This document shows, piece by piece, positions 462-56,574 of a stretch of DNA of 64,000 bases. Source of the DNA: Candidatus Saccharimonadota bacterium. Its GTDB lineage: Bacteria > Patescibacteriota > Saccharimonadia > Saccharimonadales > Saccharimonadaceae. The stretch lies in the NCBI GenBank assembly GCA_013333595.2, contig JABCON020000002.1, positions 16,849-80,848 on the forward strand. The letters are read 5' to 3'. The notes beneath the pieces are model-generated. The model ran no database searches. It was given only the letters and a program-made list of their open reading frames with translations, and was not told the origin of the DNA. Both the position numbers and the translations under genes were made by a program. The first letter of the stretch is position 1, and the number at the start of each line of letters is the position of its first letter.

Positions 462-1739
462 CTACTGAGGCTTACGGGGCGTTGTGTGCTGCTGCAAAAC
501 CTGCCGGTATAGCTGGCAGTAGGCAGTGGCGGTTGCTTCGGGCGATAGATCGGCCAGGGCATGCTGCGCCCCGGCAGCCAGGGTGTGGCGGGTGCTATCA
601 TCTGCCAGTTGCTGCATACCAGCCGCCAGCTGCTTGATACTTGGGCCCACTAGCAGGCTATTGGTCGGGCTTAGGCCAACATCCAGCCGGTCATCGCAGT
701 ACAGGACTGGCAGGCCGGCCGCCAACGATTCAGGGATAACAATCGGCTGGTTATCGAACCGGTACGAAGCCAGCACAAAAGCGTCGGCATCACGCAAGGC
801 CTGGGCAATATCCTCCAGCCGCTGCACTTGGCCAGTAAAGGTAATGCTGGGCTTATGGGTGCCCCTCAGGCTCTTAAGCTTGAGCTTGGCCTTGGTTTCG
901 AGCCGGCTGCGTTCCTGGCCATCACCAATAATGACGAGCTCGCTGCCAGGGATATTGGCTTTCGTAAAGGCACTAATGACGCGCCCCAAGCGCTTTTCTT
1001 TCACCAGCCGGCTAATGCTTACAAAGCGTAGACCGGTGCCGCTGCGGCGGCGGTGGGTACGCTGCAAAATACGCTGAAACGTGCGGTTGTAGCCGGTGGG
1101 GATTGTTGTGCCGGTGATACTAACTGGCCCGGCGGCAGTGCGAATATAGCGTAGCATGTAGTGCGATGGCGTGGTAACAGCCGTGACGGCCTGGGCCACA
1201 ATCGCCTGCGACCGCCAATCAAACCGGGCAATGGCGCTTTCGCCTGGCAGTGTAATACGGCCTGCCCGCTGCGGCCGGGTGCGGTGGGCGCTCGCCAGCA
1301 TATAGGCAACTAACCGGTAGCCCAGGCTACTTAGGCAGGTTAGGATGGGCTGCGTGCGGTGGGCGCCGGCCATATTGGTATGGAAGGTGTGCACGTGTGG
1401 AATACCAAGCTGGCGGGCCAGGCGAGCGCTGAGTAGCAGCGCACCGGTGTCCGTTTGGCTATGGATAATATCAAACTGGTGCTGGCGGGCCAACTGGCGG
1501 GCAAAGCGCCGGCTGCAGCGCACAATACTGGTGTGGCGCGGCAGCCCCGGCAGGCGCCGTGACGGCAAGGCAATGGTGGTAATACCCTGGGGTGGCTCCA
1601 GGCCGGTGGCTGGTGCCAGTAAGGTTACCTGGTGGCCCAGGGCAGTGAGTTCTTCGAGCTGAGTTTGGACGCTCCTACCGACGCCGCTGCTGGCAGGGTA
1701 GATATCATCAATCACAAGGGCAATCCGCAGGCGTTTCAT
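462..1739 (-). CDS. GT4 (GT-B) glycosyltransferase
   Basis: N-terminal RIALVIDDIYPASSGV, DIIHSQT, SRLVKEKR, DNQPIVIPESLAAGLPV; -10 box 7 nt upstream of ATG. Confidence 0.9.
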   Translation of the reverse strand: MKRLRIALVIDDIYPASSGVGRSVQTQLEELTALGHQVTLLAPATGLEPPQGITTIALPSRRLPGLPRHTSIVRCSRRFARQLARQHQFDIIHSQTDTGALLLSARLARQLGIPHVHTFHTNMAGAHRTQPILTCLSSLGYRLVAYMLASAHRTRPQRAGRITLPGESAIARFDWRSQAIVAQAVTAVTTPSHYMLRYIRTAAGPVSITGTTIPTGYNRTFQRILQRTHRRRSGTGLRFVSISRLVKEKRLGRVISAFTKANIPGSELVIIGDGQERSRLETKAKLKLKSLRGTHKPSITFTGQVQRLEDIAQALRDADAFVLASYRFDNQPIVIPESLAAGLPVLYCDDRLDVGLSPTNSLLVGPSIKQLAAGMQQLADDSTRHTLAAGAQHALADLSPEATATAYCQLYRQVLQQHTTPRKPQ

Positions 1740-5298: not shown

Positions 5299-6354
5299 AT
5301 GTCTTTCGTAAAACGGCTGCGCGCTGGCGTAGCCGCCTTTAGTAACCCCCCGAGTGAGGGGTCTGCGGCGCCACCCGGCGCTGCGGCCACCCCCACCTCA
5401 ACGCCGGCCCCGGCTGCTGCGCCGGCCCCAACGGTCGGTCCTTGGCTGGACCGCGCCCGGCGCGGTACTGTCAAGGCTATTCTTGTCCTCCTGGCCGCAG
5501 TGGTTCTGCTGTGGTTGGGGGGTAAATTACTTGGGGGCTTTTTGGGTTTTATAACCCTGCCCCTCAGCTGGATCGACCCCCTCGATCCGGCGTTGAGTTT
5601 GCTCTATCTGAGCAATCTCAACGTTGTGTTTAGCCTATTATACCCGGTGCTAATTGCACTGGGTATCATCTACGTAGTCGGCCTGGTCTTCGAGGGCCGC
5701 GTCGTGGTCTTTAATGACCGCGACAGTATCTGGCCCGGGCTGCCCTACCTCACCATTTTTTTGGTAGGTGGGGTAAAATGCGCCCATACTGCGCTGGCTG
5801 ACTGGGGGCTGTGGTACACACGGCCCTTCGTCGGCTTCCTGTGTGGAGTGCTGGGCTTTGGCCTGGTGGGCGTGTTCTTTGTAGCACGCGCCCGCCAAGC
5901 CCGGGACCCCAAGCTGGGGTTCCGGCCGGTGGCCGTGGCCCGCGCCCTGGTGGCGGGCTGGTACACCAGCATGTGTATACTGGTGGCTGTAGCCCTGGTG
6001 GGCTATGGTATTACCGCCACCTTCCAGGTGCCGGCTGGTGCCATTCAGGCCAGCTACGTCTGGCATAACTGGTACCTGCTATATTTTGCAATGGTACCGT
6101 TCGGAGCCTTCAACTGGCTCCGGTGCCAGCTAGCTGATCGCAGGAATGGCGTCCCGGATGAGGGGGATTACTACCCCATCTGGGATAGCCGATGCGAACT
6201 ACGGCAGCGCAGTGCGGCACCCACCGCACCACCTGCTGCCGCCGCGCCAGTGCCTGCCGAGGCCCCGGCCGAAGACCAGCCTGCAGCTAAACCTGCCGAA
6301 ACCGGCGAAGAATATAACGACGCCGACTTCGGCAAAGCGGCGCCCCCTGCCTAA
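5299..6354 (+). CDS. hypothetical multi-pass membrane protein with Pro/Ala-rich termini
   Basis: 351-aa ORF, several hydrophobic segments, SD-like GAAGGA upstream, own promoter and terminator. Confidence 0.75.
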   Translation: MSFVKRLRAGVAAFSNPPSEGSAAPPGAAATPTSTPAPAAAPAPTVGPWLDRARRGTVKAILVLLAAVVLLWLGGKLLGGFLGFITLPLSWIDPLDPALSLLYLSNLNVVFSLLYPVLIALGIIYVVGLVFEGRVVVFNDRDSIWPGLPYLTIFLVGGVKCAHTALADWGLWYTRPFVGFLCGVLGFGLVGVFFVARARQARDPKLGFRPVAVARALVAGWYTSMCILVAVALVGYGITATFQVPAGAIQASYVWHNWYLLYFAMVPFGAFNWLRCQLADRRNGVPDEGDYYPIWDSRCELRQRSAAPTAPPAAAAPVPAEAPAEDQPAAKPAETGEEYNDADFGKAAPPA

Positions 6355-11057: not shown

Positions 11058-11768
11058 ATGGCTACCGCGTTTGTTAATAATTCTGAGTTCTCCAATGACC
11101 CCGCTGAGGCGGTGATGACTATCCGCACCGCCCGCAAGGGCGTGGTGCGGGCTGCTTTGGTTGCCTTGGCTATCGTCGTGTGTAGTGTGGCTGCGGCTGT
11201 CGCCGTGGTGCGATATAGTCACATTGCCCACTGGGCTAAAATTCTTTTTATTTTAGTCGTAATTTGCCATATCATTTTGGCAGCGGATAATATCAGTTAT
11301 GCGTTGGACCGCCTGTGGCGTCTCCCTGCCTACCAAGCTCTCCAGTGTGAGCGGCAGCGGCTGGGGTACTACCTCGGCCGTTTGGCAGCCACATGCCGCC
11401 CCGGTGTCGCGTTGGAATGGCGCAGTGTAGACTGCGCCTACAAGGCGTGGCAGGCTCGTACCGCTGCCGGTGCGCCGGCCGGCGTGCGTATACTGGTACT
11501 GCACGGCGCAGAGCTGAAGCGGTACCAAGTGTGCCGTTTCGGTGCCGAGCTGGTAATTTGTCAGACGTACCAGTTCGATTCTACTACCGCCGCTGCCGCC
11601 GCTTTTGAACGCGGTATCGTTGATGGCCACGCTGCAGCTGAGGTTTTCGGTGAGGATGATCCACACATCCTCCGTCAGCTAAATACCATTTTCGAACAAC
11701 TCACAAGCCAGGAGGTGATACAGGTAGAACCCCCGGTGGGAGGGGAATTCCCCACCCGCACCGTGTAA
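11058..11768 (+). CDS. hypothetical membrane protein (orphan)
   Basis: Two N-terminal hydrophobic segments; TTTACA-17-TATGCT promoter, SD AAGGAGG, terminator. Confidence 0.7.
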   Translation: MATAFVNNSEFSNDPAEAVMTIRTARKGVVRAALVALAIVVCSVAAAVAVVRYSHIAHWAKILFILVVICHIILAADNISYALDRLWRLPAYQALQCERQRLGYYLGRLAATCRPGVALEWRSVDCAYKAWQARTAAGAPAGVRILVLHGAELKRYQVCRFGAELVICQTYQFDSTTAAAAAFERGIVDGHAAAEVFGEDDPHILRQLNTIFEQLTSQEVIQVEPPVGGEFPTRTV

Positions 11769-13166: not shown

Positions 13167-14408
13167 ATGCCAGAACATACTCATGGGCGCCGCAACCGCC
13201 GCCCCAATCACACGGCCCGTGCGCCGAAAGCCGGCCGGCCCACCCGCAGCCGTACCAACCATAACCGCCGCCGTAAGGCCGGCAGCCATAAGCAGCACAT
13301 TCACCCAAGCAAGTTTATCCACAAAGCTGTACCACCGGTAGAGGAAGCCCCCTACCAGCCTACACATAGCTTTGCCGACTTTGGCTTTGGGCCAGAGCTG
13401 ATGTACAATATCCGCACCAAGGGCTTTACTAGCCCAAGCCCAATCCAGGACCAAGCCATTCCGGTGGTCCGTGATGGGCGCGATATCATCGGCCTGGCCA
13501 ATACCGGTACGGGTAAGACGGCGGCTTTTTTGCTGCCAATTCTTGAGCGTATGAGCGGCATTATGGTGCGCCCCAGCGTACTCGTGATGGCGCCCACGCG
13601 GGAGCTAGCCCAGCAAATCCACGCCGAGGCCCAGAGCTTTAGCTGTGGCCTTGGGGTGACGGCGGCCCTAGTGGTGGGTGGTGAATCTGCCGAGCGCCAA
13701 ATCCGCCAGCTCAAAAAACGGCCGCATATTATCATTGGTACACCGGGCCGGCTGAAGGACTTACTACAAAAGCGCCAGTTAACGCTTAAGAATATTAGTG
13801 TGCTGGTGTTAGATGAGGCCGATAGAATGCTGGATATGGGCTTTTTGCCAGATATTACGGCTATTACCAAAGCCTTGCCTACGGAGCGCCAGAGCCTCTT
13901 CTTTTCGGCGACCATTACACCGGAGATTGAGGCACTGACCCGTAAGCTGCTGCGCGACCCACGCACGATTAGCGTCCGCACGGGCGATACCAGCGACCAT
14001 GTGGAGCAGGATGTTATCCCTACGCGCGATAAAGCCCACAAGCTGGAAGTACTGCAGGGCTTGCTAGATAACGAGCAGTACCAAAAGGTGCTGGTGTTCG
14101 GCGAGACGAAGTACGGCGTGCAGCGCCTGAGCGACCAACTCAGCAAAGCCGGCTACCAGGCGGTGGCGATTCATGGCAATAAAAACCAAGCCCAGCGCCA
14201 GCGAGCCTTGCGCGATTTTAAAACCGAGGCTGCGCGGGTATTGGTTGCAACCGATGTTGCTGCCCGCGGGCTGGATATCCCGGATGTAACCCATGTGATC
14301 AACTACGATACGCCCCAAACCTACGCCGACTACGTACACCGGATTGGCCGGACCGGCCGCGGCGGTAAGCGTGGCCACGCCCATACCTTTATTCAGGAAG
14401 ATAAATAG
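13167..14408 (+). CDS. DEAD-box RNA helicase
   Basis: Q motif, ANTGTGKT, PTRELA, TPGRL, DEAD, SAT, ARGLD, HRIGRTGR. Confidence 0.95.
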   Translation: MPEHTHGRRNRRPNHTARAPKAGRPTRSRTNHNRRRKAGSHKQHIHPSKFIHKAVPPVEEAPYQPTHSFADFGFGPELMYNIRTKGFTSPSPIQDQAIPVVRDGRDIIGLANTGTGKTAAFLLPILERMSGIMVRPSVLVMAPTRELAQQIHAEAQSFSCGLGVTAALVVGGESAERQIRQLKKRPHIIIGTPGRLKDLLQKRQLTLKNISVLVLDEADRMLDMGFLPDITAITKALPTERQSLFFSATITPEIEALTRKLLRDPRTISVRTGDTSDHVEQDVIPTRDKAHKLEVLQGLLDNEQYQKVLVFGETKYGVQRLSDQLSKAGYQAVAIHGNKNQAQRQRALRDFKTEAARVLVATDVAARGLDIPDVTHVINYDTPQTYADYVHRIGRTGRGGKRGHAHTFIQEDK

Positions 14409-23355: not shown

Positions 23356-23865
23356 TTACTCACGGCAGTCTACCGGCAGGCGGTAGACGGTGGGCAGCTC
23401 CTGCCCGGGTACGACAACCGCGACATTATACTGCCGCTTGTTATCGACCCGAATGTGTTTGTAGATGGGAGCACCCTCCTGATAGTGCTCCCGGCGCATG
23501 AGCTCTACTCCCTCGGCGGAGGAACCAAGGGGTGTAGCGGTGATAGAATAATCACCGCTGGCTGGGGCGGTGCCCCAGGCCCGCAGCCAGGCGAATACCT
23601 GGCCAGTCTCCTCATTGGTGGTGCAAAACTGCCACACGGCAGTCTTGTCAACCCCAACCTTTTTGCCACTATCGCCCTGGGGGCGCAGCGGTTCGACCAC
23701 CCCATCCGGGCCCGGTGTGGGCTGCGGCGGGGCGGGGTTAGTAGCAGCTACCGGTTTGGTAGTAGCTACTGTCGTGGTGGCAGGGGGTTCGGCCGGGGCC
23801 GGTTGGCCACCGGTGGCGATCCCCAGGGCTGCCAGGATGGCAGCTAGCCAGGTTGTAAAGTCCAT
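23356..23865 (-). CDS. putative secreted/anchored protein with Pro/Thr-rich linker
   Basis: Hydrophobic N-terminus, PAPAEPPATTT linker, C-terminal domain with two Cys; SD AGGAG. Confidence 0.75.
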   Translation of the reverse strand: MDFTTWLAAILAALGIATGGQPAPAEPPATTTVATTKPVAATNPAPPQPTPGPDGVVEPLRPQGDSGKKVGVDKTAVWQFCTTNEETGQVFAWLRAWGTAPASGDYSITATPLGSSAEGVELMRREHYQEGAPIYKHIRVDNKRQYNVAVVVPGQELPTVYRLPVDCRE

Positions 23866-23972: not shown

Positions 23973-24473
23973 CTACGTGCCGCAGTTGGGCGTGTGTAGC
24001 TTCATGGTATCCTGCGTCAGTGATGACGCTTGGTTGTTATCACCTCCTGTCCGTGTGATGGTGCGGATATGGACATCAAGGTCTGTACCCTGGGGGACCT
24101 GCAGGTCAGTTACCTGCAGGCGACCATCTGGCCCCGGGCTGCCAGTAAAGATCACACGAGGTTCAATAAAAACCTCGTTGCTCCCCGTCGACTCAGCAAC
24201 TGAGAGCTGAATCGTCGTGCCGGCGGCCTCCGATGGGTCGGCGGCGATGCCGTCAACATGGAGGGCGGCTCGGCCCGGCCGCCTGCAGAAGGCTCGAATT
24301 GAGCCCTCCTCCCCCAGTTTGGGGGTGCTGGCAGTAGCCACCTTGTGGGTGGCGCGGGGAGCACTGGATAGCTCACTGCTACCCAGTGCCCCGGCAACCG
24401 GGGCAGTCAGACTTGCTACCGCCAAGGCGGTAGCAACGGTAGCGACGGACAAGCGTGTGGTGAAGGCGTTCAT
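23973..24473 (-). CDS. putative secreted protein
   Basis: Signal peptide MNAFTTRLSVATVATALAVASLTAPVAGA then LGSSELSS; two Cys; SD GGAGG. Confidence 0.75.
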   Translation of the reverse strand: MNAFTTRLSVATVATALAVASLTAPVAGALGSSELSSAPRATHKVATASTPKLGEEGSIRAFCRRPGRAALHVDGIAADPSEAAGTTIQLSVAESTGSNEVFIEPRVIFTGSPGPDGRLQVTDLQVPQGTDLDVHIRTITRTGGDNNQASSLTQDTMKLHTPNCGT

Positions 24474-24682
24474 AACCTCCACCTCCTTTCAAAGAAAAAA
24501 GGATGAACAAGGTACAAAGTACCTGGGTGTGTGTATACAAAATAACGCACCATCCCAAGCACTTCCCTTATACTATCATAAAAATGCCTATATGTACAGT
24601 TTATGCTATAAATTTAAAACCCCCAGCCGGCACACACCATAAGTGCATACCAGCCGAGGGGGGCGACTGACTGCAGCAAAGC

Positions 24683-25417
24683 TTAGCTGACTTTACTACA
24701 GTCAATCGCTTGGAAGGGGAGTTTGACCGTCCCGTGATTGATCACGAGCCGGTAAATCCCCTCCCGGTTTTCGGCCCCTTTGTGATAGAGTTTGAACTCT
24801 ATCGCCTGGGGCGCTTCCCCGGCCGCCGCGTTGGTTACCGGGCTTTCCGGCTCCACACGGCGATTGATAGAGGTTTCACTCTCCCCCTTGGGGGAGAGCC
24901 GGTCGAGGGTGACGGAAACATAAGAATCTGGGACCGCCACGACCTGCATTTTCACGAAGGCCGCCCCGTCGCGGCAGACGACGGGGACGCCATCGTACTC
25001 CGCGGCAGCCGTGGGGTACTGCCACCCCTTTGGTGCTGCGGAGATGACCTTGCGGGTCTCCTGGGAGTAACGCCAGTCCGGCGTTTTCTCCCAAGACCAC
25101 CCAATGGGCTTGATGAAGAAGACGTCTTCGTCTTGCCCTAAGTTTTTACCGGGTACCTTAACATAAGGCTTGCCGGATTTAAATCCTTCCTCCGAGGGGC
25201 TCGGAGGAAGCGGATACTGATGATCGGCAGCGGGTGCTACCGATGCCGACGCCACCGGGGTGGTGGCGCTGACCGTGGAACTGCTGCTAGCAGAGGAGTG
25301 AACCCCTCCGCCAGCAGCAAGACCGGCTACAATGGCTACCAGCAGCGGCGCCTTCAGCGCCGCAATAATGCTGGCGAACCATGTAGCTAGCCCATGTGAG
25401 ATAGTTGGAGCAGCCAT
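24683..25417 (-). CDS. putative secreted/membrane-anchored protein
   Basis: Hydrophobic N-terminus, Ser/Ala-rich linker, two Cys; SD AAAGGGGG. Confidence 0.75.
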   Translation of the reverse strand: MAAPTISHGLATWFASIIAALKAPLLVAIVAGLAAGGGVHSSASSSSTVSATTPVASASVAPAADHQYPLPPSPSEEGFKSGKPYVKVPGKNLGQDEDVFFIKPIGWSWEKTPDWRYSQETRKVISAAPKGWQYPTAAAEYDGVPVVCRDGAAFVKMQVVAVPDSYVSVTLDRLSPKGESETSINRRVEPESPVTNAAAGEAPQAIEFKLYHKGAENREGIYRLVINHGTVKLPFQAIDCSKVS

Positions 25418-25525
25418 AGTGGCCACCCCCTTTCATTAGTCGTAGGTGCTGTACGTTGAATCCTACCCGGCATGGTAGGCGTACTAACTATAGTATAGCA
25501 TAAAACGCCGGCTTAGCCAGTGCAA

Positions 25526-40579: not shown

Positions 40580-40933
40580 ATGAACATTGGACTAGTCATG
40601 TTTGCAGTTCTTGCTGTCGGTGGCGTCGGAATGGCGCTATACAGTACACTTAAGATCTGGCCTTATCGGCGGCCAGGTGTATTAAGTAAACGAGAAATCC
40701 AAAACGTCCTTATTTGGATGTTTTGGATTTGCTTTTTGGTAGACAAGGGCGTCCCGCTCGCCCTTGATGTGGCTAACGGGCGCTCTGTCGCCCCGGTGCT
40801 CGAAAACCACTTTGGCTGGTTTGGGGTGGCTACTATTACCTTTTTGGTCATGAACGTGCTGGTCACGATTTTTACTAGTCGTGACTTTACTATCACGTGG
40901 CAGCCGCACGACTGTTATGGGCAAGATAGATAA
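40580..40933 (+). CDS. hypothetical membrane protein (orphan, possibly truncated)
   Basis: Three hydrophobic segments, SD GAGGAGG, terminator at 41003-41034. Confidence 0.65.
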   Translation: MNIGLVMFAVLAVGGVGMALYSTLKIWPYRRPGVLSKREIQNVLIWMFWICFLVDKGVPLALDVANGRSVAPVLENHFGWFGVATITFLVMNVLVTIFTSRDFTITWQPHDCYGQDR

Positions 40934-41106: not shown

Positions 41107-41181
41107 TGGCTGGGATGGAGGGATTCGAACCCCCGAATGCCAGGACCAAAACCTGGTGCCTTACCACTTGGCGACATCCCA
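41107..41181 (-). tRNA. tRNA-Gln (UUG)
   Basis: TGGGATG/CATCCCA acceptor stem, CCAGG-TTTTGGT-CCTGG anticodon arm, GGTTCGAATCC T-arm, encoded CCA; 75 nt. Confidence 0.97.
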
Positions 41182-52598: not shown

Positions 52599-54068
52599 CT
52601 ATTTTGGCATAATATAGTGCCATGTTGTGCCGTGCGGACTATCGTTCACGGTAATGCCCTGGGCGCTGAGCTCATCGCGCAGGGTATCACTCGCCTGCCA
52701 ATCCTTGGCGGCGCGCGCTTGGCTGCGCTGGGAGAGTAACTGCTGCTGCTGGGCGCTCAGGTTAGGCGTGCTACGGCCAAGGCTAAGGCCAAGTAGATCA
52801 TCCACCGCGGCAGTAAAGGCAGTTAGCAGTGGCTGGTGGAGCTGCTGGGGCGGCGTACTCAGGATGGCTTTGCAGACACTATCAATAAACGCGACGGCCT
52901 CTGGCGTGCCAAGGTCATCGCTCAGCTTACTGCAGAGCGTGCTGGGCGCGCTGGCTAGCAGCGTGTTGGTTTGGCCAGTTGAGTCCACCGCTGTGGCTTG
53001 CCAGCGTAAGCTTGCGGCCTCCTGCCAGCGCTGGTAGCGGTGGCTCGCTGCATCCAAAATCTCCCAGGTAAAGTTACCTTCGGTGCGGTAGTGCTTACTG
53101 AGGATTGCCAGCTTAAACGCCATCGGGTGTGCGCCGTGAGCAGTAATATCGGCTAACGTGATGATATTACCTAGGGATTTGCTCATTTTGCGGCCATCAA
53201 CCTTAAGATGGTTATTATGGAGCCAAACACGAGCGAACTGCCTGCCGGTCAGGCTTTCGGTTTGGGCGATTTCATTGCTATGGTGGACGGGGATATGGTC
53301 GATGCCACCGGTGTGGATGTCAATCTGGTCCCCTAGCGTCTCGCGCGCAATGACAGAGCATTCAAGGTGCCACCCCGGAAAGCCAACCCCCCACGGGCTC
53401 TCCCACTCCATATCGCGCTGAGCCCCTGGCGGCGATAGTTTCCAAATCGCAAAATCAGTGGCATTGCGCTTGCCAGCGGTGCTAACCCGGGCCCCGGCTG
53501 CTAGGCCAGCGATATCGAGCCGAGCCAGCTGGCCATAGTGCGCCAGCTTGCTGGTATCAAAATACAGCCCATCACCAGGAATGCGGTAGGTATAACCCTT
53601 ATCCTCTAGGGCGCGGGCAAAAGCAATTTGCTGCGGGATATAATCAGTTGCTCGCACTAGGTGGTCCGGCCGGGTAAGGCCAAGTAGGTCGTAGGCTTCG
53701 TGTTCGGCAATAGCCATATACTTGCGGGCGATATCCCAGGCAGTCAGGCCTTCGCGCTGGGCGCCGGCTTGCATTTTATCTTCACCGTCATCGGCGTCAC
53801 TCGTCAGGTGGCCCACATCGGTGATGTTTTGGGTGCGCGTTACCACAAGCCCCGCTGCGCGCAGCAGCCGCACTAGTACATCCCAGTAAATGTAGCTTAC
53901 CCAGTTGCCAATATGTGGCTGGCTGTAGACCGTCAGACCACAGGTGTAAATACTAACCTTGCCAGGGGTCAGTGGGGTTAGCGTATCCTTGCGGCGGGTC
54001 AGCGTATTGTAGAGCTGGATTGGTGCCCCGGCATCTGGTAGGGGCGTGTGGGTGGGGCGACTATTCAT
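52599..54068 (-). CDS. cysS: cysteinyl-tRNA synthetase
   Basis: CGLTVY, HIGN, GFPGWHLECS, DIHTGG, KMSKS. Confidence 0.96.
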   Translation of the reverse strand: MNSRPTHTPLPDAGAPIQLYNTLTRRKDTLTPLTPGKVSIYTCGLTVYSQPHIGNWVSYIYWDVLVRLLRAAGLVVTRTQNITDVGHLTSDADDGEDKMQAGAQREGLTAWDIARKYMAIAEHEAYDLLGLTRPDHLVRATDYIPQQIAFARALEDKGYTYRIPGDGLYFDTSKLAHYGQLARLDIAGLAAGARVSTAGKRNATDFAIWKLSPPGAQRDMEWESPWGVGFPGWHLECSVIARETLGDQIDIHTGGIDHIPVHHSNEIAQTESLTGRQFARVWLHNNHLKVDGRKMSKSLGNIITLADITAHGAHPMAFKLAILSKHYRTEGNFTWEILDAASHRYQRWQEAASLRWQATAVDSTGQTNTLLASAPSTLCSKLSDDLGTPEAVAFIDSVCKAILSTPPQQLHQPLLTAFTAAVDDLLGLSLGRSTPNLSAQQQQLLSQRSQARAAKDWQASDTLRDELSAQGITVNDSPHGTTWHYIMPK

Positions 54069-54095
54069 ATGTATTAGTATAGCATGGCTTGCAGC

Positions 54096-54149
54096 GTCGC
54101 TTTCGTCCTTTTGGACTCATCAGTAGAGACGCACATCTCTAGAGCGAAC
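54096..54149 (-). ncRNA. type III hammerhead ribozyme
   Basis: GUUCGC-UC|UAGAGA-ugugcg-UCUCUA-CUGAUGA-GUCC-aaaa-GGAC-GAAA-GCGAC: complete catalytic core and three stems; predicted cleavage between 54142 and 54141. Confidence 0.9.
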
Positions 54150-54190
54150 ATGACAAGCAGGTGGTTGACAGAGGTTCGCTTGGCTAGATG

Positions 54191-54631
54191 CTAGCTGCTC
54201 TTGAGGAGCTCGCTAACATCAAACACGATCTCAAGGGTGCAGCGATGCTGAACCCTAATATGCTGCCTGCAGGATTCGTGGTCGAATCCTACTTTGGCTA
54301 CTGGAAGCACTTCCTCACTCAGCATTTCGCCGAGCTTGGTTTTGAAGGCCTCCTGCACAGATTTAGATTCATAGTCCACACACACATAGTGTGGCTCTTC
54401 CTCCTCGTAAGTTACGAGGCAGAAGACGAGTACGTCTTTGTCGCAAGAGGCTGTAATGCCCTTGTGTTCGTCGTGCTCGTCGTACTTATCATTATCGATT
54501 GTCTCCAGCACTATCGACCTAAGGTCGATAGTGCTGGTCAGGAAGTCATAGGCCTCTTGGGCATACGACTGCCCGAGAGCAGTGTACTCATCGCGCTGTG
54601 CCTGTAGTGTAGCCGAAGTAATGCGTGCCAT
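54191..54631 (-). CDS. acidic hypothetical protein (146 aa, orphan)
   Basis: ATG 54631 preceded by AAAGGGG; long structured leader; TTGACT upstream. Confidence 0.7.
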   Translation of the reverse strand: MARITSATLQAQRDEYTALGQSYAQEAYDFLTSTIDLRSIVLETIDNDKYDEHDEHKGITASCDKDVLVFCLVTYEEEEPHYVCVDYESKSVQEAFKTKLGEMLSEEVLPVAKVGFDHESCRQHIRVQHRCTLEIVFDVSELLKSS

Positions 54632-54644
54632 GGTAATTCCCCTT

Positions 54645-54806
54645 TCAGGAACCACTCGCTCGCCGCTGACCCCTGTGGTCAACTCTGTACGAAACGAGAT
54701 AGCCCTACTCCAAACTGTGCTTGCAGTAGCGCTACCTCGCTTCGTACGCCCTGCTTGTCAAATAGCACTTTTGGGTAGATGAGTGACTCATCCGCACACA
54801 AAAGCT
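54645..54806 (-). promoter_or_regulatory. structured 5' leader
   Basis: Hairpin 54765-54806, boxA-like TGCTATTTGACAA (54755-54767), 27-bp rod 54687-54747, hairpin GTTGACC/GGTCAGC. Confidence 0.6.
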
Positions 54807-54890
54807 AATATATATATCAATAAATGGAATCGAAGTCAAGTATATTTTACAATTTTGTAGGGGAATGACGTACGGGTACGGCGTGGCGGG

Positions 54891-55877
54891 CTACGCCGCC
54901 GTGGCCTGCAGTGCCTTGGCGGTAGCATCGACAAGTTCGCGTACAATCTGCTCCTCACCTTCGTAAACGCGAAAACCAGCGGCGTATGGGTGGCCACCGC
55001 CACCAAAGTAGCCAGCAACATCTGCTGCAATGGGGCTATTGGCGCGTAGCTTGCCAGTCAGCTTGCCATCGGGGTAGGTTTTGATGGCAACGGCCAGCTC
55101 CACCCCCGTTACCAGGCGCATTTCATCAAGCACCAGTACGCTTGGGTTGTATTGGTCGCTGTAGGCTTCGATTTCACTAAACGGAATTCGCACAAGCGCG
55201 AGCTTACCATCAAGCAGGTATTCAATGCGCTCAATCAGCCGGCCCTTGTAGGCAAGGATTTCGGGCGACTTCTTCATAAATTCACGCCGGGCGGCCTCAA
55301 CAGCCGCTGGGCTTGCACCAAGACTGGCCAGCGCGGCAGCGGTCTGGTACACGGCTGCACTGACCTGCTGCGTAGTAAGGCCCAGGGTATCTGCCAGCAG
55401 GGCCGCTAGCATAGCGTGGGCGGCCGGCTGGTTGATAGGCCAGCCACATGCCGCGGCCATGTTGTAAATCACCTGGCTGGTACTGGCAGCTTCTTCAAGC
55501 AGTAATATATATGGGAAGCTGAGGTCTGGCTCAGTGCCAAGGTGGTGGTCAATTACCAGGACGGGCTTGGTGGTGAGCATATGGCGCGCACCAGGTATGG
55601 CAAGCGTTTTACTGAGCAGTACCTCTGCGCTGGTATCAACAATGATCACTAGGTCGGCCTGGGTATCGAGCCCTGGCTCTACCCTATCCCAGCCCGGCAA
55701 GTAGCGTAGATACTTGGGGATATCAACCGGGCAGTGCAGGCTCACCTGCTTGCCCATCGCACCAAGTATTTCTTCGAGCGCCAGGCTGCTGCCCAGGCTA
55801 TCCCCATCTGGGTTTTCGGCTTGAATAATAGCAATGCGGGTGGCCGCAGTTATCAAATCACAATATTCACTATACAT
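54891..55877 (-). CDS. DHH-family phosphoesterase (NrnA-like)
   Basis: NPDGD, IIVD, IDHH, GGGGH. Confidence 0.9.
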   Translation of the reverse strand: MYSEYCDLITAATRIAIIQAENPDGDSLGSSLALEEILGAMGKQVSLHCPVDIPKYLRYLPGWDRVEPGLDTQADLVIIVDTSAEVLLSKTLAIPGARHMLTTKPVLVIDHHLGTEPDLSFPYILLLEEAASTSQVIYNMAAACGWPINQPAAHAMLAALLADTLGLTTQQVSAAVYQTAAALASLGASPAAVEAARREFMKKSPEILAYKGRLIERIEYLLDGKLALVRIPFSEIEAYSDQYNPSVLVLDEMRLVTGVELAVAIKTYPDGKLTGKLRANSPIAADVAGYFGGGGHPYAAGFRVYEGEEQIVRELVDATAKALQATAA

Positions 55878-55953
55878 CCCTTTAGTATAGCATGAGCTGG
55901 CCGGGTGCTAGGGGGTGGGGCGCCCGTGCCCGCGCCGCACAAGACCATGTAGG

Positions 55954-56574
55954 CTAGTCGAGCTGGCGCCGACCCGCCAGGGCGTGCCCAAGGGTAATTT
56001 GGTCGGCGTATTCTAGGTCAACCCCCACCGGCAAGCCGCGGGCAAGCCGTGTCATGGTGGGGCGCAAGCCTGCCTCAAGAATGTGGCGCTGTAAGAACAG
56101 AGCTGTGGACTCACCTTCTACGCTGGCGTTGGTGGCAATAATAATTTCTTCTACCGCGTCCGTTTGAATGCGGCTGATGAGCTCGGCAATGTGCAGCTGC
56201 TCGGGCCCGATGCCATCAATTGGTGATAAGGCGCCACCTAGTACATGGTAGGTGCCGCTAAACTGGCCGGTGCGCTCCAGGGCAATAATATCAAGCGGCT
56301 CCTCTACCACTGCAACCAGCTGCTTGTTGCGTGTTGGGTCGCTGTAGAGCGCAGAGACATCTTCGTCCGCCCCGATCAAGGCAAAGGTAACCGGGCAGGA
56401 GCGCACCCCAGTGTGGAGCCCGTTAATGGCCTGGGCCAGCTTATGGTTAGCTTGGCTCGTCGTACGCAAAAGATGGTACGCATACCGCTCGGCAGTACGC
56501 GCACCAACACCAGGGAGTGACCCAAGCTCATCAATCACGGCCTGCAGTGCGGCCGGTAGTAGCGGTTGTGCCAA
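55954..56574 (-). CDS. recR: recombination mediator RecR
   Basis: LPGVGARTAER, YHVLGGALSPIDGIGPE, EGESTA, TRLARGLPVG. Confidence 0.95.
   Translation of the reverse strand: MAQPLLPAALQAVIDELGSLPGVGARTAERYAYHLLRTTSQANHKLAQAINGLHTGVRSCPVTFALIGADEDVSALYSDPTRNKQLVAVVEEPLDIIALERTGQFSGTYHVLGGALSPIDGIGPEQLHIAELISRIQTDAVEEIIIATNASVEGESTALFLQRHILEAGLRPTMTRLARGLPVGVDLEYADQITLGHALAGRRQLD

Follow-up and report, generated by a model that had tools for sequence, protein, structure and literature searches.

A ribozyme-ended, end-paired transcript between nrnA and cysS and a putative family of mRNA cassettes with exchangeable cargo in Patescibacteria

Self-cleaving ribozymes have been noted beside particular genes in bacteria (PMC5737381), and 33 RAGATH families are called functionally unknown (PMC11061315). 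The question why bacteria carry them there also concerns a minus-strand transcript with its own promoter that is placed between nrnA and cysS in a Saccharibacteria genome, in a stretch of 64,000 nucleotides analyzed here as a whole (hereafter the window). An earlier note on this DNA had described a leader, an orphan open reading frame (ORF) and a ribozyme, and had proposed that the pairing of the two untranslated regions (UTRs) gates self-cleavage; all the sequence strings it quoted were found where it placed them. In the RNA, a 5' hairpin is followed by an 11-bp helix that joins the 5' and 3' regions (the closing helix), a 27-bp rod, an orphan ORF of 146 aa led by a Shine-Dalgarno (SD) sequence, a decoy strand and a type III hammerhead (Table 1), and we consider it very likely that this architecture is real and conserved. 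Transcription presumably starts near 54806. The promoter was not called by a consensus promoter scanner; homologs of the unit keep a promoter of the form TTGAC-17-TATAAT/TATAAA. In the TA repeat of the -10 box and start site (54807-54818; 4812-4825 in L001; L059 versus L062), close relatives differ by one unit, possibly through phase variation.

Table 1. Coordinates of the unit, its flanking genes and a related leader type.
Feature	Position	Strand	Basis and remarks
Upstream flank, DHH-family nrnA-like gene	54891..55877	-	Named from motifs, no domain scan
Promoter	54811..54839	-	Sequence; -35 TTGACT, 17 nt, extended -10 TGnTATATA
5'-terminal hairpin P1	54767..54806	-	Fold; conservation seen in alignment A5 of leaders and in model R1
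Arm A, 5' strand of closing helix	54750..54760	-	Fold, anchored comparison, shuffles
27-bp rod	54687..54747	-	Fold; family motif RAGRYGAG/CUCRYCUY close to rod base
5' strand of predicted nested helix with 54175-54164	54669..54683	-	MFE only; 2-nt overlap with decoy
Hairpin holding the SD sequence (54645-54637)	54633..54655	-	Fold; L001 variant retains hairpin
Cargo ORF, 146 aa, alpha/beta, mosaic alleles	54191..54631	-	Structured at synonymous sites
Hairpin spanning the stop codon	54187..54220	-	Fold
Decoy strand, can pair with hammerhead stem III strand 54149-54143	54174..54180	-	Fold, shuffles
Arm B, 3' strand of closing helix	54151..54161	-	Fold, anchored comparison
Type III hammerhead	54097..54149	-	Predicted cut after C54142
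Hammerhead stem I	54141-54124	-
Hammerhead core	54123-54117	-
Hammerhead stem II	54116-54105	-
Hammerhead stem III	54147-54143 paired with 54101-54097	-
Extended -10 of leaderless cysS	54076..54084	-	Sequence; directly past ribozyme; relatives share arrangement
Downstream flank, cysS	52599..54068	-	Named from HIGH/KMSKS-type motifs, no domain scan
Second leader type	L050 5049-5430, L051, L064, L068, L070 5096, L076, L097, L127

The hammerhead contains all core bases, including the CUGANGA/GAAA core, and an NUH site, and it scores 31.4 bits against the Rfam model Hammerhead_3 (RF00008; E-value 1.6e-4), which is below the gathering score of 48.5; the hammerheads of relatives score 28.9-39.5 bits against the Rfam hammerhead model. 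Its stems I and II are closed and stem III is open. Covariation was detected at 9 of 15 pairs among 13 sequences, versus 0 of 500 shuffles, stem III being invariant. Among units, a hammerhead and an intrinsic terminator are exchangeable at the same site. In Saccharimonadales, about half of the related hammerhead rows are located behind SD-led ORFs without the arms, therefore the ribozyme does not need the wrapper. Three further observations concern hammerheads elsewhere. Four variants (L104, L105, L262 and L264) have an extra A past GAAA or a changed stem III, and possibly have bulged cores. At L224 (about 650-1530, plus strand, genome G911), a near-identical hammerhead pair stands on both sides of an SD-led 123-aa ORF and could release a circularisable unit-length RNA. 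On a phage contig (L162, 1990-2055), an ORF with a promoter of its own carries an unrelated hammerhead at its 3' end.

The predicted fold of the whole 721-nt RNA has a z-score of -8.5, with none of 20 shuffles folding as well, and 120-nt windows across the leader and ORF reach z-scores of -3.5 to -8.3, while the flanks are at about zero. The exact 11-nt complement between leader and 3' UTR is present in both the minimum free energy (MFE) and centroid folds, and 0 of 1000 shuffles of the 3' UTR equalled it. The rod likewise agrees with its earlier description, having 27 bp with three G-U pairs and two G.G mismatches, and the rod of L001 carries a compensatory change from C-G to U-A. On the other hand, the two helices that had been drawn nested inside the closing helix did not hold up: GGUUC pairs locally with the SD region instead, and in L001, where AAUUC replaces it, the SD hairpin is kept and the proposed 3' pairing weakened; ACAGAG shares two nucleotides with the paired end of the rod, and the nested helix listed in Table 1 is the one that the model favours. 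The closing helix could be compared in 68 of 96 units, those in which a sequence profile fixed arm A and the cut site fixed arm B (some of the other 28 have another leader, and some are divergent or cut), and at least 8 of its 9 core pairs are present in all 68 of these hammerhead units. Both the GACAAG/CUUGUC core and stem III are invariant across them, which is therefore conservation and not covariation. Two-sided, compensatory changes in the closing helix were seen in terminator-ended units, in distant units and in a second family described below, the arms of all of these having been selected partly for pairing. As for the rod, both sides change at 20 of 25 pairs in an alignment of 23 of 74 rods that was author-chosen, partly for pairing, and rods retain a purine-rich motif. 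In the sequences aligned here, the closing helix, the rod and ribozyme stems I and II appear as covarying elements.

The gating proposal depends on the decoy, which lies past the stop codon. The local helix AGCGAAC/GUUCGCU, which had been suggested to sequester the hammerhead stem III strand, does form when 3'-only fragments are folded. In 58 of 83 UTRs of the family, none of 20 shuffles equals the decoy in its pairing with arm B and the stem III strand; the decoy sequence tracks that of its pairing partner from unit to unit; in the subtype of this copy the decoy is weak. When pairing of arm A was forbidden in partition function calculations, stem III became more costly by over 1 kcal/mol in all 15 units, with the median going from 0.2 to 5.9 kcal/mol, and in MFE folds the same block disfavoured the whole ribozyme fold beyond the same threshold in 26 of 33 units, compared with 3 and 4 of 33 for control blocks; these runs of 15 and 33 units cover part of the unit set, and 7 of the 33 show no gating. 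Blocking the decoy as well lowered the median cost from 4.4 to 0.7 kcal/mol, 14 of 33 units remaining above 1. In this copy, blocking arm A costs 1.6-2.3 kcal/mol, and 3' fragments cost 2.7-7.8 kcal/mol, except for a fragment beginning at the SD sequence, which costs 0; the folding models include neither tertiary contacts nor folding kinetics. In silico, gating by full-length closure is strongly supported across the family but weakly in this copy, and on these models we think that the ribozyme is probably gated in the family and judge gating of this particular copy slightly more doubtful than not. Since the decoy is also kept in terminator-ended units without a ribozyme, gating cannot be its sole role, and it probably also caps the 3' end once the 5' arm is gone. 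Modelling of ribosome-binding site (RBS) accessibility found no clean translational switch between fold states: the median RBS opening cost falls from 11.5 to only 9-10 kcal/mol, and RBS access of the cassettes is not clearly below that of native SD genes.

We compared the locus in the best 80 nrnA relatives, which are 62-77% identical and, where a group is named, titled Saccharibacteria, Saccharimonadales/ia or Patescibacteria. The gap from nrnA to cysS is at most 135 nt in 48 of the 80 loci, inserts are found in 23, and 9 have no cysS in the locus. Because nrnA and cysS are adjacent in those 48 loci, their junction is ancestral and the unit was inserted into it. Among the 23 inserts, six have the same 3' arm and hammerhead right before cysS and other ORFs within, and in six further inserts (L056, L059, L062, L063, L071 and L077) the wrapper ends in a terminator-like hairpin and a U tract. 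Both the empty site in relatives and the different ORFs inside one scaffold that the earlier note had envisaged were thus seen, which supports its suggestion that the element is ribozyme-terminated, has paired UTRs and is undescribed. Collection by script gave 76 distinct units, of which 57 carry a hammerhead and 75 contain ORFs, these forming 28 clusters; allowing for about 3 false units and 3 ORFs that are apparently mis-framed, this leaves about 23 cargo families. The full wrapper, with either a hammerhead or an intrinsic terminator at its 3' end, is found around these families at several sites: after removal of two false units and of units with short flanks, 73 units represent 18 flank classes, 42 of them being at two sites. 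Tandem arrays of units occur, and the loss of a unit can leave a ribozyme scar (L065, L075). In 4 of 14 chosen pairs, leaders are 87-89% and trailers 82-90% identical around ORFs without a BLASTP match to each other, and between this copy and L001 the identity is 94% in the leader, 77% in the ORF and 99% in the trailer.

Within the genus of G001, probably the oral genus Nanosynbacter, 89 of 131 genomes carry the exact hammerhead pattern, at 1-4 copies each and with 0 for the reversed control, and across the order 14 of 401 genomes do. A model of the 3' region (R2) matched 17 of 41 relatives of G002, with up to 7 copies, and the leader model matched 12 of 151 genomes of the family, several weakly, including three matches in G001, two in G003 and seven in G004, one of the seven being false. 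A stricter hammerhead pattern was found in 9 of 301 genomes of the phylum, and by heuristic ORF calls and the author's reading it was placed 3' of an SD-led ORF in 8 of the 9; a looser pattern rang about as often as its control, and only four new loci that passed a stem check were used from it. Six loci in the family of G870 (L222, L223, L233 and L257-L259) have a closing helix of 13-14 bp right before stem III that covaries and is unrelated in sequence to the Saccharibacteria arms, with different cargo, and the two loci folded in full both have 5' hairpins and a leader rod. This second Patescibacteria family appears to carry a wrapper of the same design with unrelated sequence. No copy of the wrapper scaffold was found in a viral contig collection, where five hammerhead-pattern matches were attributed to chance or to an unrelated hammerhead. 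Among five related genomes, reverse transcriptase (RT) is present in one, RtcB in none, and Rho was found in none. Small ORFs, only some of them followed by a 3' hammerhead, are driven by a second leader type (Table 1), which has the same promoter and an SD hairpin.

The 146-aa ORF is confirmed as had been described. Its product (P0001) has no match in Pfam or in a phage collection, and against PHROG only one with an E-value of 0.025. It has only 2 representatives at the 50% level, and a profile search brought 13 clusters of 39-97% identity, all close kin; no longer form was found among 348 candidates, which is weak evidence, and the ORF has no locus in genome contigs or viral contigs and one in metagenomes. 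The AlphaFold model has a pLDDT of 88, and Foldseek returned no match at an E-value of at most 0.001 and the best Z in VIA was 5.1, results that do not in themselves show a new fold. The Atlas placed P0001 at 0.92 to clusters in which 10-22% of members carry PF01612; a DnaQ-like 3'-5' exonuclease was not accepted; there is no Pfam match, no RNase H-like fold was listed, and the Asp of the VGFD motif is not retained in distant alleles. The alleles are mosaic, with four-gamete conflicts rising through 18%, 35% and 55% as distance grows among 25 alleles; the C-terminus may be conserved because of the hairpin that spans the stop codon. P0001 contains no hydrophobic segment, such a segment being present in 4 of the 23 cargo families.

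Cargo proteins as a whole are 73-249 aa long. Of 74, 8 have PHROG matches, to membrane, secreted and unknown families of phages, and 1 has a Pfam match, which leaves few cases on which to base the link to host defence. The Pfam match is the cargo of L125, which scores 45 bits (cut-off 25) as Tad4, a phage anti-Thoeris protein that inhibits type I Thoeris; it has 27 phage relatives, 26 of them from phages named Bacillus, and no sequence match in the PDB. The two best Tad4 matches in the genus lie within cassettes. ThsB-TIR was found in 10 of 131 genomes of the genus and in none of the four with the clearest Tad4-like matches (G163, G169, G174 and G185). Frames of 320-350 aa at L286-L293 and L295 give weak to moderate Tad4 scores, and L286 has no arm motif. 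The PADLOC result was 0 of 44. The cargo coding sequences fold better than synonymous shuffles (median z-score -2.1, versus +0.1 for flanking frames; n=29, p=3.6e-5), the native control frames being the longest open frames nearby and thus possibly wrong in some cases, and that of this copy reaches -8.3. Codon use of the cargo differs from that of the flanks, with AGA/AGG accounting for 38% versus 9% of Arg codons. The cargo of L221 (1674-1946, minus strand), from a low-GC Patescibacteria genome, is weakly like a Saccharibacteria cargo family, that of L131 (1167-1430, plus strand; phmmer E-value 2.4e-5 in a small set).

Elsewhere in the window, five stand-alone orphan genes are SD-led (5299-6354 and 11058-11768 on the plus strand; 23356-23865, 23973-24482 and 24683-25426 on the minus strand). 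Their coding regions are structured far above synonymous shuffles (best z-scores -3.6 to -10.3), which is not the case for most leaderless or atp-operon genes of the window; none has a Pfam match, three have a signal-peptide-like start, and they possibly belong to the same mRNA class without the wrapper. Most stand-alone genes of the window appear to be leaderless: of 36 ORFs examined, 19 have a TATAAT/TATACT box 5-9 nt ahead of the ATG. A DEAD-box helicase gene (13167-14408, plus strand) has a structured 5' coding region (z-scores -3.2 and -5.9), and a tRNA with a UUG anticodon (41110-41181, minus strand) has a strong fold nearby at 40701-40900 (z-score -6.9).

Taken together, we consider it somewhat probable (roughly 55%) that the unit is a member of a family of end-paired, self-contained mRNA cassettes in Patescibacteria, which are stabilised, checked for full length and supplied with different cargo by recombination. 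The layout of promoter, 5' hairpin, closing helix, rod, SD sequence, variable small ORF, decoy and 3'-end device is apparent from the sequence. RNA polymerase would start near 54806, and P1 would shield the 5' end. As the RNA closes, arm A would take arm B from the decoy, freeing stem III so that the hammerhead cuts; mainly full-length transcripts would thus be cut, to give a compact RNA with both ends protected, and where the 5' arm is missing the decoy would cap the 3' end instead. A terminator can stand in for the ribozyme, and cysS keeps its own leaderless promoter. Saccharibacteria are naturally competent, and the mosaics suggest that cargo and modules are exchanged by homologous recombination, with the conserved UTRs as homology arms and no element-encoded enzyme; the similarity of leaders around unrelated ORFs and the scarcity of RT and RtcB in the five genomes are consistent with this. 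Least certain are the roles of the proteins and of the rod: the cargo might consist of fast-evolving, partly phage-type accessory proteins that handle the bacterial host and host defences; the wrapper might supply a stable mRNA for them, with the rod probably bound by a protein.

A more far-reaching reading is that Patescibacteria export these end-paired, ribozyme-trimmed mRNAs, that the closed RNA is recognised at the rod and delivered into the host bacterium, and that host ribosomes then make anti-defence, membrane and takeover proteins from a swappable payload; we think this unlikely. It draws on the epibiotic lifestyle, on structure selected even within coding sequence, on protected and defined RNA ends and a conserved rod motif, on the SD-led cassettes where most stand-alone native genes are leaderless, on the foreign codon use, and on Tad4-like cargo in the four genomes without a ThsB-TIR match, and it would place the window's further SD-led, strongly structured orphan genes in one class with the cassettes. 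However, all four genomes in which the 16S anti-SD was read have it intact and S1 is present in 5 of 5, therefore the cell can translate the cassette RNAs itself and export is not required; a need for host ribosomes through loss of the anti-SD is rejected on the same intact sequences. In Parcubacteria, for which detection of the anti-SD motif is given as 48% (PMC9297842), there are members without it. Moreover, AGA/AGG-rich use would not be favoured by a high-GC host, ThsB-TIR does occur in the genus, no export apparatus is linked to the loci, and we know of no mRNA export from bacterium to bacterium. At the other extreme, the units could be ordinary, highly expressed accessory genes, with an ungated hammerhead standing in for a terminator and a pairing that does no more than stabilise the mRNA. 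The exchange of hammerhead and terminator at one site, the lack of Rho among the five genomes, the many arm-less hammerhead units and the weak gating of this copy all fit this view, but it gives no account of why a decoy should covary and cover stem III, of the rod motif or of the identical order of parts in the second family, and we regard it as rather unlikely.

We find it quite improbable that the unit is a latent mRNA like those of type I toxins, silent until RNase III or 3' processing flips its fold. The 5'-3' pairing, the SD sequence within a hairpin, the long rod, the two competing helices and the presence of RNase III in 5 of 5 genomes would suit such a role; however, a consensus scan of 53000-56000 found no antisense promoter (the scan also missed the unit's own promoter), few cargo families have a hydrophobic segment, the cargo is 73-249 aa long, PADLOC is silent, and the RBS opening cost shifts little. 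Little support was found for the type I toxin suggestion of the earlier note or for its circular or mobile RNA. A selfish element mobilised through RNA, which like a retrozyme or viroid would be circularised and would depend on reverse transcription in trans, or a MITE with DNA inverted-repeat arms, would account for dispersed copies in 18 flank classes, tandem arrays, a terminal inverted repeat joined to a hammerhead, and the two hammerheads around an ORF at L224. Yet units of this family each have a single ribozyme, the promoter is external to the RNA and arms and still moves with the unit, RT and RtcB are present in 1 and 0 of the five genomes, more than half of the 73 units sit at two sites, loss leaves a ribozyme scar, G-U pairs point to RNA, and the viral contigs hold no scaffold copy, so that we consider this highly improbable.

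The preferred reading, an end-paired mRNA cassette, would offer a concrete and testable role for a natural ribozyme, placed under the control of the far end of its own mRNA. Its wrapper also marks, by sequence alone, fast-evolving orphan genes of Patescibacteria as candidates for a role in manipulating the host, an aspect of these bacteria about which little is understood. Should the RNAs be exported after all, they would represent a new route of interbacterial control and possibly a scaffold for RNA delivery.

No earlier description of this cassette family was found in the literature searched, which left most subscription journals outside its scope, and each of the known systems resembles the unit in part. 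RAGATH-10 (RF03147; in Rfam an sRNA of unknown function) scores above gathering (41.2 bits) in one leader subtype, between rod and SD sequence, in 3 of 20 loci (L088, L096 and L109), and did not match the window at an E-value of at most 10; the model spans about 85 nt of that subtype, its pairing uses the 3' strand of the rod, and it is without arms, decoy, ribozyme and cargo. PeSL cassettes of T4-like phages are likewise repeated promoter/stem-loop modules around orphan genes that recombination shuffles, but the abstract presents them as short phage promoter-terminator motifs and includes no end pairing, rod, decoy or ribozyme (PMC2839356). PeSLs belong to phage variable regions, whereas the units are chromosomal, with none in viral contigs, even though the shuffling is similar.

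Type I toxin mRNAs such as hok and aapA have long-range pairing of their 5' and 3' ends, a buried SD sequence and competing folds, all of which the unit shares; unlike them, it has no antitoxin RNA that we could find, its cargo is long, diverse and mostly soluble, and its 3' end is predicted to be made by a ribozyme. Retron ncRNAs also close around a long hairpin by terminal inverted repeats, but the unit has its ORF within the closing helix and, among the units examined, no RT beside it (here the neighbors are nrnA and cysS). With retrozymes and viroid-like circular RNAs, which are highly structured and dispersed and carry a type III hammerhead, the unit has these three features in common; retrozymes are recognised by two ribozymes or terminal direct repeats, whereas there is one hammerhead in the window and one per unit, with an external promoter of its own, a protein cargo, and no RT or ligase in most genomes tested. 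With the type III hammerhead itself (RF00008), the ribozyme shares the complete core, the three stems, the NUH site and covarying stems I and II, but besides its lower score it differs in ending a chromosomal mRNA, in competing with a decoy and in being exchangeable with a terminator.
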